In this document: positions 21,321 to 25,444 of the stretch, one piece after another | How positions within the stretch are numbered: the stretch's first letter is position 1 | How the letters are laid out: every line of letters begins with the position of its first letter | Source of the DNA: Candidatus Latescibacterota bacterium | GTDB lineage: Bacteria; Latescibacterota; UBA2968 | NCBI GenBank assembly: GCA_022824945.1 | Contig: JAJDYX010000013.1 | Span: forward strand, 513 to 64,512 | Length of the DNA stretch: 64,000 nt | Direction of reading: 5' to 3' | Made by a program: the position numbers and the translations under genes | The notes under the pieces: generated by a model | Databases searched by the model: none | Told to the model about the DNA's origin: nothing | The model's input: only the letters and a program-made list of their open reading frames with translations

Positions 21321-22379
21321 ATGGACATGGCTATGGATTATAGTGCTTCAATTCTGGAGGGGCTGGGGGAGGGCATCGTGGCTTTTGATAAAACACATCA
21401 GGCCGTGATGGCCAATGCACATCTGATTGCGTTGATGGGGTGGGACAAACAGGCTGTTTGTGGCGCATCGCCAGAGGAGCTATTTGCCCAACGCCCTGAG
21501 TTGTTGCGGATTTTGAACGAGGGTATAAAAAATAAGGTGCTGGTGTCAGATACGGATCTGGTACACCACAATGCAGATGGTGGATTGCAACATCTGCGCG
21601 TGAGTACGTCATTTTTGAATGCGGATACGCAGTGCGGGCTGGTGCTGGCGGTGCGCGATGTTTCTGAGATAAAGCGGATGGAATGGGAGATTTTTCAAGT
21701 TGAAAAGATGACGGCGTTGGGGCGTTTGGCCGCTTCTGTTGCCCATGAGGTGCGCAATCCCCTGGGGGCGATTGACATTCAGTTGCAGTTGTTGGAGGAA
21801 GATCTCGACGAGTTGTCAAGTGCGTTGAAAGAGCGCCTTGTGGGACGGCTCAATATCGCGCAGACAGAGATGAAACGGCTCGACCGCCTCGTGTATAATT
21901 TTTTGCGTTTTTCGCGTACGCCCAAACTTCATTTGCGACAGGTGTTTCTCAACGATGTGGTTCGCCGCGTTTTTGAGCTGGTCTCGCCCGAAGCACGCGA
22001 GCGCGGCATTGTGTTGCGTCTGGAGCTTTCCGACGGTCTGCCCGCGATTAATGGAGATGAGGATCAACTCGGTCAAGCCGTGCTCAATATTGTGGTGAAT
22101 GCCTTTCAGTCCATGGCCGAAGGTGGCGATTTGATTGCCGAAACGCAAACCGAGTCGGGGCAGGTGTGTTTGATGCTTAAGGATACGGGGTGCGGGATTC
22201 CAGAAGAAGAAGTGGATCGCATTTTCGAGTTTTATTATACGACGAAGGATGAGGGTACCGGGTTGGGGCTATCTATTGCCCAGCGCATTATTTATCAGCA
22301 CGGAGGGCATATCGATGTCGAGAGCCTTCCCGAACGAGGTACGACTTTCCGGGTGTATTTGCCCGTGCCTGAGAGGTAA
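21321..22379 (+). CDS. Cytoplasmic PAS-domain sensor histidine kinase (NtrB-like)
   Basis: It has a PAS-like N-terminus, the H-box SVAHEVRNPLGAI, and N/G boxes (NIVVNAFQSM, DTGCGIP, GTGLGLSIA). I see no TM segment. An RBS GGGAGA lies before ATG 21321. Confidence 0.85.
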   Translation: MDMAMDYSASILEGLGEGIVAFDKTHQAVMANAHLIALMGWDKQAVCGASPEELFAQRPELLRILNEGIKNKVLVSDTDLVHHNADGGLQHLRVSTSFLNADTQCGLVLAVRDVSEIKRMEWEIFQVEKMTALGRLAASVAHEVRNPLGAIDIQLQLLEEDLDELSSALKERLVGRLNIAQTEMKRLDRLVYNFLRFSRTPKLHLRQVFLNDVVRRVFELVSPEARERGIVLRLELSDGLPAINGDEDQLGQAVLNIVVNAFQSMAEGGDLIAETQTESGQVCLMLKDTGCGIPEEEVDRIFEFYYTTKDEGTGLGLSIAQRIIYQHGGHIDVESLPERGTTFRVYLPVPER

Positions 22380-22382
22380 CTT

Positions 22383-23741
22383 ATGGAGGCGAGTGAGATT
22401 CGGATTTTGATTGCAGATGATGAGTACTATATCTGCGAGGGGCTGCGGGAGGCGATGACCAAAGACGGTTATCGGGTTGATGTGGCTTATGATGGGAATC
22501 GGGCAAAAGCGCTTATGGAAGCCCATGAGTACGATGCCGCAATTTTTGATCTCAAGATGCCGGGGCAGGATGGTCTGGCGCTTTTGAAGTGGGTAAGCGG
22601 TTCAAATCGCGAGATTGGCGTTATTGTGATTACGGCTTATGGAGAGGTGGAGACGGCTGTTGAGGCCATGCGACGGGGGGCGTATGATTATTTGACCAAG
22701 CCGGTAGATCTGAAGCGGTTGCGCCTGTCTTTAGAGCGTTTGCTGGATCACCAGGCTCTGGTCGCGGAGAATCGCGTATTGCGGGCGCGTCTGGATTCCA
22801 ATGGCGAAAATGGAGATGTTGTGCATCGAAGTGCCGCGATGGAACAGGTTTGTGATACCATAGCGCAGGCGGCAATGACCGATGTGCCGGTTTTGATTAC
22901 TGGCGAGACGGGGACGGGGAAAGAACTCGTGGCGCGTGCGATTCATCAGGCGAGTGCGCGGCGGAATGCGCCTCTGGTGGCGATGAATTGCGGGGCGTTT
23001 GCCGAGACGTTATTTGGCAGCGAGTTGTTCGGTTATGTAAAGGGCGCGTTTACGGGGGCGACGGCGGATAAGGCGGGTTTTTTTGCCGCGGCTGAAGGCG
23101 GAACGCTTTTTTTTGATGAGGTGGGCGAAATCCCTTTGCCCAATCAAGTCGATTTGCTTCGCGTCTTAGAAGAAAAAGTTTATCGCCCGGTGGGGAGCAC
23201 CAGGGCGGTGGCCGCAGATGTGCGAACTATTTTTGTCACCAATCGCGATCTCGATCGGGAAGTGGCAGAAGGGCGGTTTAGAGAGGATCTGTATTATCGC
23301 ATCAATGTGGTGCCCATTCGCCTGCCACCGCTTCGCGAACGCGTTGAAGATATTCCGCTTTTGGTCGATGTGTTTTTTGATAATCTGTGTGCGTTGCACC
23401 ACAAAGCGCGCAAGGAATTAACTCCGGATGCGATGGACAGGGTTCTGGCTTATTTTTGGCCGGGCAATGTGCGCGAGTTGAAAAATACGATTGAGCGGGT
23501 TGTGGTAACCTGTGCAGATCAAAAGGTCGATGTCGATCATTTGCCTTCTCGGATACGCGATGCCCAGAATGAGATGGATACGATAACGGTTGAACTCGGT
23601 TCTTCGCTTGAAGATGTGGAGCGCGCGTTGATCGAAAAAACACTTGCACATGTGACGGCAAATCGCAAAGAGGCTGCGGCTCTGCTGGGGATCAGTGTGC
23701 GCGCGTTGCAATACAAGATCAAGGCGTATAATCTGCGCTAA
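22383..23741 (+). CDS. Sigma54-dependent response regulator (NtrC-family bacterial enhancer-binding protein)
   Basis: It has a REC domain (ILIADDE...IFDLKMPGQDG) and an AAA+ domain with GETGTGKE, the GAFTGA loop and ESELFGY-like sequence. A Fis-type HTH sits at the C-terminus (NRKEAAALLGISVRALQYKIK). Confidence 0.92.
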   Translation: MEASEIRILIADDEYYICEGLREAMTKDGYRVDVAYDGNRAKALMEAHEYDAAIFDLKMPGQDGLALLKWVSGSNREIGVIVITAYGEVETAVEAMRRGAYDYLTKPVDLKRLRLSLERLLDHQALVAENRVLRARLDSNGENGDVVHRSAAMEQVCDTIAQAAMTDVPVLITGETGTGKELVARAIHQASARRNAPLVAMNCGAFAETLFGSELFGYVKGAFTGATADKAGFFAAAEGGTLFFDEVGEIPLPNQVDLLRVLEEKVYRPVGSTRAVAADVRTIFVTNRDLDREVAEGRFREDLYYRINVVPIRLPPLRERVEDIPLLVDVFFDNLCALHHKARKELTPDAMDRVLAYFWPGNVRELKNTIERVVVTCADQKVDVDHLPSRIRDAQNEMDTITVELGSSLEDVERALIEKTLAHVTANRKEAAALLGISVRALQYKIKAYNLR

Positions 23742-23750
23742 TTTCCAAAA

Positions 23751-23796
23751 GCGCAATTTTTGCATTTTAGTTATAAAATAGGGTGCAATTTTTGCA
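23751..23796 (+). promoter_or_regulatory. Two copies of GCAATTTTTGCAT (inverted-repeat core TGCAA-TTT-TTGCA), candidate enhancer (UAS) sites
   Basis: Identical 13-mers lie at 23752-23764 and 23784-23796, 32 bp apart. They sit about 95 and 128 bp upstream of the sigma54 promoter and directly downstream of the activator gene. Confidence 0.5.
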
Positions 23797-23898: not shown

Positions 23899-23992
23899 TA
23901 TAATATTAGGGCGCGGTTATCGCGGATTTTTGATATTGGGAGTAACTTTCTGTTTTTATTGATGTTAATGAGTTATTCTCCATTTTTAAGAA

Positions 23993-24559
23993 ATGTCTTA
24001 TAGTTTGAAGGTGCAAATTCTGCATTTTGTTGCGTGTGGGGACCCGGTGACTCAAACGACAATTTTACCTGAAGGCGATGTTTTTCAGTTTGATGTTTCG
24101 CTTCTTGTACCCGAGTTGCAATCACAGGATCGCATGGGGGCGATCAAGGAACTGGTTGATCGGCTCTATGGGCGCAAGAAGGTGGTCGATAGTTTGAAGT
24201 TTTTGCAAACTATTCTGGATCGAGAAGATCAGATGAGTACTGTTTTGGGTCGAGGTGTTGCACTGCCTCATGCGCGATGCCGATCGGTTGCTCAGCCCGG
24301 TGTGGCATTGGGTATTTCTCAGACGGGTATTGCTTTTCCCCCAGATGCAGAACCCGTTCACGTAATATGCATGGTTGCAGTACCCGATATGGCTCCTGTG
24401 CCTTATTTATCGGTTTTGAGCAATTTGGCTCTGTTGTTTAAAAATTCAGATGTGCGAGCGGGTTTGATGGCCTGCGACACGTCGATGAGTATGTATCAAT
24501 TTATGACAGAACACCTGGCGCAAATTCGCAAGGTGTCGGCTCCCCATTCTGTTTTATAG
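23993..24559 (+). CDS. PTS EIIA type-2 domain protein (PtsN / EIIA-Ntr-like)
   Basis: It contains AIKELVDRL..., ILDREDQMSTVLGRGVALPHAR (the phosphorylatable His context) and VHVICMVAVP. The N-terminal start is uncertain. Confidence 0.75.
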   Translation: MSYSLKVQILHFVACGDPVTQTTILPEGDVFQFDVSLLVPELQSQDRMGAIKELVDRLYGRKKVVDSLKFLQTILDREDQMSTVLGRGVALPHARCRSVAQPGVALGISQTGIAFPPDAEPVHVICMVAVPDMAPVPYLSVLSNLALLFKNSDVRAGLMACDTSMSMYQFMTEHLAQIRKVSAPHSVL

Positions 24560-24592
24560 TAGCTCTTCCCCATTTTTTACAGGAGGTTCCCC

Positions 24593-25444
24593 TTGCCTGG
24601 AATTATGATACAAGATAGTGAGTCTCTGGATTTGTATCTGCGAGACATTGCCTCGTCTGAACCCCTTTCGAGTGCAGAAGAAATTGAACTGGCCAAGAAG
24701 ATCCATAAAGGTTGCCAGAGATCCAGAGATAAACTGGTTGCGGCCAATCTCCGTTTTGTGGTGAGTGTGGCGCGCGAATATCAAAATCACGGGGTGCCTC
24801 TGGCCGATTTGATCAGCGCGGGCAATATGGGTCTGATGACAGCTGCCGAGCGTTTTGATGGCACGCGGGGCTTTAAGTTTATTTCCTATGCTGTCTGGTG
24901 GATCCGCCAGGCGATCCACCAGAGTCTGGCACAGGATTCGCGGGTTGTGCGGTTGCCTATTAACCGCATTGATTTGTTGCACAATATTTCAAAGGTGTCG
25001 CGCGAGTTGAGGCAGTCGAGTGAGACCGAACCCGAACCCGAAACTGTGGCCAAAGAACTCGGCGTGTCGGTGGAGATGGTTCAGGATACGCTGATGCGCG
25101 CGCGCGATGTCTGGTCTCTGGATGCGTCTTTCCGCGAGGAGGATGACCACAGTTTGTTGCATGTGTTGCCCGATAAGACGCAAAAGGCACCCGATGAGGA
25201 AGTTGTAGAAGATTCGGTGCGCGAGCAGGTAAAAGATGTGCTCACGTCTCTGGATGACCGCGAGACCGAGGTTTTGCGCCTGTATTTTGGTCTGGGTGGT
25301 GAAGAGCCTCTTACGCTCGAAGAGATCGGTGTTCGGTTCAATTTGACCCGAGAGCGCGTGCGGCAAATTAAGGAGAAAGCACTTCGCAGGTTGCGCCATC
25401 CGCGTCGTCGCTCGCGGCTCGAGCCGTTGCTGGAAGTGACTTAA
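24593..25444 (+). CDS. RNA polymerase sigma factor, sigma70 family with regions 1.2-4 (group 2/RpoS-like size)
   Basis: Region 1.2 reads [15 protein letters not shown] and region 2 reads [12 protein letters not shown]...[18 protein letters not shown]...[13 protein letters not shown]. Region 4 reads [35 protein letters not shown] lies 6 nt before the TTG at 24593. Confidence 0.88.
   Translation: [283 protein letters not shown]

Follow-up and report, generated by a model that had tools for sequence, protein, structure and literature searches.

A candidate sigma cascade module conserved across the uncultured phylum Latescibacterota

Results

Genes and features of the block

We analysed a 64,000-nucleotide stretch of DNA from Candidatus Latescibacterota bacterium (GenBank assembly GCA_022824945.1, contig JAJDYX010000013.1, positions 513 to 64,512 of the forward strand), hereafter the window. 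Our subject is a block in which genes for a histidine kinase, an NtrC-family activator, a PtsN-like EIIA protein of the phosphotransferase system (PTS) and an RpoD-like sigma factor follow one another on the plus strand, with a putative sigma-54 promoter between the second and the third gene. The genes and features of the block are listed below, and the centres of the palindromes are counted from the predicted transcription start.

21321-22379, plus strand: cytoplasmic PAS histidine kinase, 352 amino acids from ATG 21321 (the reading frame is open from GTG 21234)
22383-23741, plus strand: NtrC-family response regulator and predicted sigma-54 activator with REC, AAA+ and Fis-type helix-turn-helix parts
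23752-23764, unstranded: putative activator site 1, CGCAATTTTTGCA, a TGCAA-N3-TTGCA palindrome centred at about -152
23784-23796, unstranded: putative activator site 2, TGCAATTTTTGCA, a perfect palindrome centred at about -120
23853-23865, plus strand: bend site resembling that of integration host factor (IHF), AAACAATAGGTTA (WATCAANNNNTTR, one mismatch), within an invariant alignment block
23884-23898, plus strand: predicted sigma-54 promoter TGGCAC-N5-TTGC, TGGCACGGATATTGC, with the start expected near 23910
23912-23934, plus strand: small leader hairpin CGCGGTTATCGCG and a TTTTT run, directly after the predicted start
24012-24024, unstranded: third activator-like palindrome, TGCAAATTCTGCA, in the transcribed leader, centred at about +108
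24047-24559, plus strand: PtsN-like soluble EIIA, 170 amino acids from GTG 24047 (188 from the alternative ATG 23993)
24581-24586, plus strand: Shine-Dalgarno sequence AGGAGG of the sigma gene, 6 nt before its TTG start
24593-25444, plus strand: RpoD-like sigma factor of the sigma-70 family (N-type), 283 amino acids, TTG start, without region 1.1
25468-25503, unstranded: bidirectional intrinsic terminator (A-run, 8-bp GC stem, T-run)

A Pfam-type domain search assigned PAS_4, HisKA and HATPase_c to the kinase. Its H-box histidine is His142, its orthologues are annotated at 349-358 amino acids, and it has no hydrophobic segment (maximum Kyte-Doolittle value over 19 residues, 0.97) and no transmembrane segment. 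Only 3 nt separate its stop from the start of the activator, which contains Response_reg, Sigma54_activat (7.4e-67), AAA_lid_14 and HTH_8, the phospho-acceptor Asp56 and a GAFTGA motif at residue 221. Both proteins fall short of the equivalog cut-offs. The activator scores 388 against TIGR01818 (NtrC; cut-off 558.6) and 427 against the AtoC profile, which is higher than NtrC, yet below the AtoC cut-off; likewise, the kinase stays under all equivalog cut-offs, with its top score for AtoS and a somewhat lower one for NtrB. The sigma factor comprises regions 1.2, 2, 3 and 4, and its DNA-reading residues are of the RpoD type. Downstream of it lies the sole strong terminator, a GGCCCCTG-TTTT-CAGGGGCC hairpin at 25475-25494 followed by a T-run to 25498, with a folding energy of -28 kcal/mol for 25455-25510.

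This layout had largely been anticipated in a preliminary description of the same DNA, made from the letters alone. The cytoplasmic PAS kinase named there is borne out by its domains and by the missing hydrophobic segment, and the REC-AAA+(GAFTGA)-Fis activator placed after it by the domain search, the GAFTGA motif and Asp56. Coordinates and regions 1.2-4 agree with a full-length sigma gene that has its own AGGAGG and starts 33 nt after the EIIA gene, and the only strong hairpin (25475-25498) indeed follows the sigma gene.

Conservation of the block across Latescibacterota

By scanning one genome per species, we collected 76 loci with a relative of the EIIA gene, and the order kinase, activator, EIIA, sigma is kept in approximately 70 of them. 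A block present in about 70 related species therefore looks like a real, phylum-wide sigma cascade. The chain put forward in the preliminary description, from a two-component signal through sigma-54 to a second sigma factor, gains support from the conservation of both block and promoter throughout the phylum, as far as sequence comparison can tell. Identity to the window proteins in relatives reaches 81-88% for the sigma factor, 80-84% for Rho, 76-84% for GlnA, 63-71% for the activator and 41-52% for EIIA.

The spacer between the EIIA and sigma genes, 33 nt in the window, is mostly 20-50 nt long in almost all lineages; it contains GGAGG and is too short for a promoter or terminator. Where the sigma is 81-100% identical to that of the window, just four loci have a long spacer: three of them (L043, L044 and L047) contain a 203-nt insert and one (L019) a 122-nt AT-rich repeat insert. 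These inserts may be small mobile elements.

One locus, L087 from a 5.66-Mb genome, lacks the kinase gene and the upstream EIIA gene and carries an EIIA paralog after the sigma gene. The activator gene, the two palindromes, the promoter and the downstream palindrome are all kept there, directly before the sigma gene. Because L087 retains just these elements, and because conservation extends through the phylum, the core conserved relation is that of an activator, then a predicted sigma-54 promoter, then a sigma gene. In a distant clade that is often labelled Gemmatimonadota (L039, L046, L048, L052, L055, L061, L069, L073 and L090), the sigma gene is followed by a gene for a GAF-type sigma-54 activator, amtB, a PII gene (glnK) and a glnA-like gene, and the EIIA-linked sigma retains the majority region-2.4 motif.

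A predicted sigma-54 promoter with activator sites at fixed distances

The promoter at 23884-23898 is exact, as claimed earlier, and it is also unique: TGGCACGGATATTGC is the sole match to TGGCAC-N5-TTGC without mismatch on both strands of the 64 kb, in which about 0.12 exact matches are expected from a simple base-count estimate. It is invariant in the alignment of close relatives, and TGGCAY-N5-TTGC occurs in the activator-EIIA spacer of nearly all loci having both genes (72 compared). Across those loci, GG-N10-GC and its flanking bases are conserved, whereas the 5-nt spacer and the surroundings are variable.

The two upstream palindromes and the one in the leader lie at -132, -100 and +128 from the -24 element of the window. 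Among loci with a sigma 81-100% identical to that of the window, the first is found at -131 to -146 in nearly all and the third at +116 to +142 in most, as well as in L087; the second lies approximately -99 to -124 from the element in nearly every locus, also in the distant clade. The upstream pair is spaced by about 32 nt, and the half-sites are constant across loci with variable central triplets. An IHF-like sequence (WA[ATC]CAANNNNTTR) at -35 to -30 from the -24 element was found in 40 of 73 loci, compared with 0.55% of random 95-nt windows. In close relatives, the promoter, the palindromes and the IHF-like site stand out as invariant blocks amid a drifting spacer. That about 70 species have this promoter and these sites at matching positions is, on this comparative evidence, more than chance. 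The palindrome downstream of the predicted start could be a brake or a roadblock, or it could offer the activator hexamer a third place to dock.

The hairpin directly after the predicted start is weak (-5.5 kcal/mol); it is kept in near relatives with the exception of L005, and not outside the near clade. Rfam families gave no match anywhere in the window, and the leader therefore contains no known riboswitch. Neither a conserved sigma-70-type promoter nor a second sigma-54 element was found in the leader and the EIIA-sigma spacer across the lineages compared.

Transcription of the EIIA and sigma genes

Evidence at the RNA level comes from contigs, assembled rather than individual reads, of eight metatranscriptomes (four marine and four from sponges or corals). 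In the four marine runs, contigs first appear at 23971-24125, cross the EIIA-sigma junction (for example 24230-24906 and 24432-24996) at a depth of 10-50, and end at 25448-25475, while 22576-23903 is essentially uncovered and the kinase and activator genes are near zero. Within the 20-kb neighbourhood, depth in these runs is highest for EIIA-sigma (10-35), compared with 0-18 for rho and 0-2 for glnA. Contigs of the four sponge and coral runs also cross the junction and end at approximately 25440-25457. Contigs that span the junction and stop at the terminator, together with the short spacers seen in relatives, agree with the earlier proposal that EIIA and sigma are co-transcribed.

The -24/-12 match might be no working promoter, the EIIA and sigma genes being read through from the kinase and activator genes or from an unrecognised promoter. 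Contigs in three of the four sponge and coral runs do extend from the 3' part of the activator gene through to the terminator, and therefore read-through or DNA carry-over is possible; furthermore, a six-frame search of the window and 88 relative loci (not whole genomes) did not find an RpoN box. Nevertheless, we regard this explanation as very improbable. Nearly all of the 72 loci retain GG-N10-GC and its flanking bases, whereas the 5-nt spacer and the wider surroundings differ; the palindromes and the IHF-like site hold their distances to the element; and in the four marine runs coverage is missing over 22576-23903, just upstream of well-covered EIIA and sigma genes.

Two RpoD-like sigma factors on the same chromosomes

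The best PDB matches of the N-type sigma are principal SigA proteins, and its relatives are named RpoD/SigA or primary sigma in the source annotations. Against TIGR02394 (RpoS) it scores 264, below the cut-off of 378.7. Searches with the N-type sigma as the query returned only orthologues among the best 120 matches. Paralogs surfaced when the query was P0194, a stand-alone Latescibacteria sigma that is 60% identical and encoded behind TTGACA-N18-TATATT; this search revealed a second sigma family of 283-288 amino acids (S-type). Genes of both types are located on contigs of coinciding length (5426268, 8426055, 7108786, 5633552, 5559252 and 5325212 bp). For the 5,559,252-bp chromosome (L017; L091, L092) both types were confirmed, with the EIIA-linked N-type gene at 3.80 Mb and the S-type gene as follows.

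L092:567-1418 and L091:8001-8852: S-type sigma, 283 amino acids, between a NUDIX gene and murD

The S-type gene is preceded by TTGACT-N16-TATATA and has no sigma-54 element. The second sigma factor postulated in the preliminary description thus does have a stand-alone RpoD-like counterpart on the same chromosomes, the 5,559,252-bp genome being an example; this co-occurrence rests on close relatives whose sigma is 99% identical to that of the window. The same paralog rules out the N-type protein as the sole principal sigma factor. Within one genome the two types are 55-59% identical, and both start with TTG or GTG.

The two types differ in regions 2.4-3.0. The S-type has the motif ILQxLAE[QH]SRxVRLPLN, as do short stand-alone sigmas from other lineages, whose promoters are of the TTGACA type. 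The N-type carries derived substitutions in this motif and has a histidine in region 2.4 where E. coli sigma-70 has Thr440. Regions 2.4-3.0 of the N-type are identical in seven of eight full-length sequences of its clade, even as overall identity drops to 80%; the deviations are one change in N_B and three in L087. Region 4.2 is the same in both paralogs. Because a second, stand-alone RpoD-like sigma sits behind a TTGACT/TATATA promoter, the N-type looks like a derived and regulated paralog, although sequence features do not settle which of the two is the principal one.

Contigs from other sigma genes were also encountered at window positions 24867-24917 (runs X1-X8), where they share only 40-50 nt of region 2.3 and then diverge. 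One of them continues with SILQTLAEH, and because this is the S-type motif, it suggests that the stand-alone sigma is transcribed in the same samples as well. Another sequence, the 282-amino-acid sigma P0178, matches the window type in its N-terminal part and the marine stand-alone type (P0186) in its C-terminal part, and is probably a chimera that arose in assembly across an identical stretch. The nearest long RpoD-like representatives with an organism name are from metagenome-assembled genomes of the Patescibacteria type.

The roles might also be the reverse: the window sigma would be a housekeeping or co-principal factor, its sigma-54 promoter a conditional boost and the stand-alone paralog the specialised one. 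In favour of this, the window sigma is the best-conserved protein of its neighbourhood (81-88%), its conservation at least equals that of the stand-alone paralog, the source names are RpoD/SigA with principal SigA proteins as best PDB matches, and its transcripts have the highest depth of the 20-kb surroundings in four samples and are present in all eight metatranscriptomes. However, the source names are based on homology only and are identical for both paralogs, and in no lineage does a conserved -35/-10 promoter precede EIIA or sigma. Sigma-54 promoters are not known to have basal activity. It is the other paralog that has a consensus-like promoter and a housekeeping context (NUDIX and MurD), and that shares the ILQxLAE[QH]SRxVRLPLN motif from which the window sigma departs by derived substitutions. 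On balance, we consider a housekeeping role for the window sigma unlikely, and the reading as a regulated paralog is retained below.

The EIIA protein and its possible role

The EIIA protein matches PTS_EIIA_2 in Pfam (1.1e-28) and contains a phosphorylatable histidine, His75, in a PHAR motif that is invariant among homologues. Its start is most likely GTG 24047 rather than ATG 23993, because homologue N-termini and the 170-amino-acid members of its cluster (one with NCBI accessions) favour the former. The family is small, found almost only in Latescibacterota and nearly always encoded beside a sigma gene. In five loci (L029, L032, L033, L062 and L087), an EIIA paralog directly follows the sigma gene, replacing the upstream one or adding to it. 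The earlier label "PtsN-like" holds in part: the solved structures closest to the EIIA profile are four PtsN structures in the PDB, but the protein falls far below the PtsN equivalog cut-off.

The simplest guess is that this EIIA controls the sigma made along with it, because of the repeated linkage of EIIA to sigma genes, its PtsN-like profile, the lack of EIIB or EIIC genes nearby, and a precedent in Azotobacter vinelandii, where unphosphorylated EIIA-Ntr drives degradation of RpoS (PMC12923157). Alternatively, EIIA and sigma could be co-transcribed yet functionally unrelated, with EIIA acting in a sugar PTS of the fructose or mannitol type or as a general regulator of the nitrogen-related PTS (PTS-Ntr). 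The best NCBIfam match is indeed a fructose IIA domain, although at 72 bits it does not reach the cut-off of 103.5, and the PtsN targets, as far as the sources cover them, are mostly kinases, transporters and enzymes. On the other hand, EIIB and EIIC genes were found neither in the window nor in the annotated loci, the PtsN structures are the nearest to the profile, and both the near confinement of the family to one phylum beside sigma genes and the paralogs behind the sigma gene in the five loci named above speak against it. We judge this alternative doubtful, albeit the most serious of those considered here. A more specific and somewhat less probable proposal, which we put forward tentatively, is that EIIA is a dedicated, phospho-His-dependent partner of the sigma factor: an anti-sigma factor of a new kind, a stabilising factor or an adaptor. 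If that were true, the module would integrate a two-component input, exerted on transcription through sigma-54, with a PTS-Ntr or nitrogen input exerted on the protein, and these two inputs would decide which RpoD-like sigma runs the cell.

Surroundings of the block

Upstream neighbours of the block are housekeeping genes (RF1, PrmC, SecDF, Rho and glnD); downstream of it are four paralogs with type IX secretion system (T9SS) tails, then glnA and haem genes. The paralogs form an array of surface-protein genes.

25516-34496, minus strand: the four array paralogs, with dCache-like region and T9SS tail; a small lipoprotein-like gene occupies 27581-28126

In relatives, the copy number of the array ranges from 0 to approximately 5 and insertion sequence (IS) elements interrupt it; it is absent from L087. 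Because the array is inserted variably, position alone links it to the cascade, which is how it had been presented in the preliminary description. No -24/-12 element was found upstream of the array genes. An AT-rich block (AAAATTTATTTGCT...TATTATTCT), which can be assigned to neither sigma, is common to three of their upstream regions.

Nitrogen or carbon-nitrogen status is the signal to which the genomic context points, because glnD and glnA are neighbours of the block here and amtB, glnK and a glnA-like gene accompany it in the distant clade. Within the window, neither a sigma-54 element nor the palindrome was found before glnA.

The gap between glnD and the kinase gene (21171-21320 in the window) is polymorphic among relatives. 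Three extra minus-strand genes, for a GlmU-like nucleotidyltransferase, a single REC protein and a GAF histidine kinase, are present there in many relatives (L001-L006, L009, L011, L012, L016, L019 and L020) and missing from the window and others (L008, L010, L013, L014, L017 and L018); IS transposases adjoin the locus in L003 and L004. Far upstream, the R subunit of a type I restriction enzyme is encoded at 209-2746, followed by two open reading frames without a Pfam match, 2841-3494 (217 amino acids) and 3525-5666 (713 amino acids).

Discussion

A proposed sigma cascade

We propose that the block is a phylum-conserved sigma cascade module of Latescibacterota, and estimate the probability of this reading at roughly 65%. 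In the proposed chain of events, the soluble PAS kinase would phosphorylate the NtrC-family activator on Asp56, and the activator would bind the two TGCAA-N3-TTGCA palindromes approximately 152 and 120 bp upstream of the start, with a third such site approximately 108 bp downstream. An IHF-like bend would help it to contact the closed sigma-54 RNA polymerase at TGGCAC-N5-TTGC and to open it. The predicted transcript would run from about 23910 through a leader of approximately 137 nt, EIIA, the 33-nt spacer and sigma, and stop at the hairpin at 25475-25498. Most likely, the sigma factor made in this way would redirect polymerase to a distinct regulon whenever the kinase signal is on, and EIIA, through its conserved phospho-histidine, would tune the activity or stability of that sigma.

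Several observations weigh against this proposal. The two paralogs are not separable by NCBIfam RpoD and RpoS profiles, on which they score alike (RpoD_Cterm 242 and 240 for the N-type, 243 and 238 for the S-type), and in matched genomes the supposedly regulated N-type is conserved at 79-96% versus 73-93% for the S-type. No other unit of the 20-kb neighbourhood is covered as heavily as EIIA-sigma, and because of this top depth the designation "alternative" sigma is not settled. The assembled contigs can contain DNA and show presence and linkage with no mapped 5' end, and those reaching into the activator gene in three runs may reflect read-through. No RpoN box was found in the loci searched, no target promoter of the N-type sigma was identified, EI-Ntr (PtsP) and NPr genes were not seen in the window, and EIIA scores only 38 bits against the PtsN equivalog TIGR01419, whose cut-off is 138.7. 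A stronger form of the tentative reading of EIIA as a dedicated sigma partner would make the sigma-54-driven paralog the principal sigma in part of the phylum.

To our knowledge, direct control of a sigma-70-family sigma gene by sigma-54 is well documented mainly in Borrelia. The module described here would be a second case of this rare design, in the form of a compact unit kept across an uncultured phylum, and because it is compact and its activator sites are readable, it should be easy to rebuild in a test host. The tie between a PtsN-like protein and a sigma-70-family gene gives an opening for studying how PTS-Ntr, nitrogen status and sigma choice are connected, a matter that has long been obscure. 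For Latescibacterota, many of which are associated with sponges, corals and marine habitats, the two nearly equally conserved short RpoD-like sigmas raise the question of a division of labour. No description of such a module was found in the searchable literature on Latescibacteria and sigma factors.

Comparison with known systems

The closest parallel is the Hk2/Rrp2-RpoN-RpoS pathway of Borrelia burgdorferi, in which, as far as the cited accounts extend, an NtrC-type regulator acts at a sigma-54 promoter before a second sigma-70-family gene and the kinase gene adjoins the activator gene (PMC2940757, PMC1976401). The formal analogy drawn in the preliminary description still stands, in that the same logic can be recognised here, where it is read from sequence. 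There are also clear differences. Unlike in Borrelia, the Latescibacterota locus has upstream palindromes, an IHF-like site, a co-transcribed PtsN-like EIIA and a nitrogen-gene context rather than one of host adaptation. Its regulators, promoter and sigma gene are contiguous, whereas the rpoS gene of Borrelia sits elsewhere and additionally needs BosR. Furthermore, its sigma is no RpoS orthologue, as judged by scores below the cut-offs, but a paralog of a short sigma without region 1.1.

NtrB/NtrC with enhancer-dependent promoters such as glnAp2 is the textbook system of this type. Like it, the block has a soluble PAS kinase and a REC-AAA+-HTH activator, a pair of upstream sites spaced by about three turns of the helix, a bend site located between these and the promoter, and glnD and glnA as neighbours. 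On the other hand, both regulators stay below the equivalog cut-offs and score higher as AtoS and AtoC, the putative site reads TGCAA-N3-TTGCA rather than the TGCACC-N5-GGTGCA of NtrC, an extra site is located downstream of the start, and the target is a sigma gene; ahead of the glnA gene of the window, neither a promoter of this type nor the site was found.

Genetic ties between a soluble PtsN-like EIIA bearing a phospho-histidine and a sigma gene are also known from the rpoN-hpf-ptsN cluster and PTS-Ntr, within the scope of the source cited (PMC4314083), and in Azotobacter vinelandii the level of a second sigma factor depends on whether EIIA-Ntr is phosphorylated (PMC12923157). Here, however, the sigma gene concerned is one of the sigma-70 family and shares an operon with the EIIA gene upstream of it, hpf, rapZ and npr genes are missing, and the PtsN threshold is not reached.

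Two further comparisons concern the sigma factors themselves. The cyanobacterial group 2 sigmas SigE and SigB are under nitrogen control via NtcA. They resemble the proposed arrangement in that an RpoD-like paralog is induced by a regulator of nitrogen status alongside the principal sigma, but the activator here is a predicted sigma-54-dependent one rather than a CRP-family factor on a sigma-70-type promoter. The short principal sigma of Bacteroidota has approximately 285 amino acids, starts at region 1.2 without region 1.1 and has RLP-type regions 2.3-3.0. Unlike Bacteroidota, Latescibacterota have two such genes per genome, canonical -35-reading residues (TRERVRQI) and TTGACA-type promoters. 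Taken in this company, the module would be a variant of the sigma-54 to sigma-S-type cascade with a co-transcribed EIIA partner, distinguished by a layout that places regulators, promoter and sigma gene side by side, by a palindrome located beyond the predicted start, by the EIIA gene in the same transcript and by the presence of two short RpoD-like sigmas.

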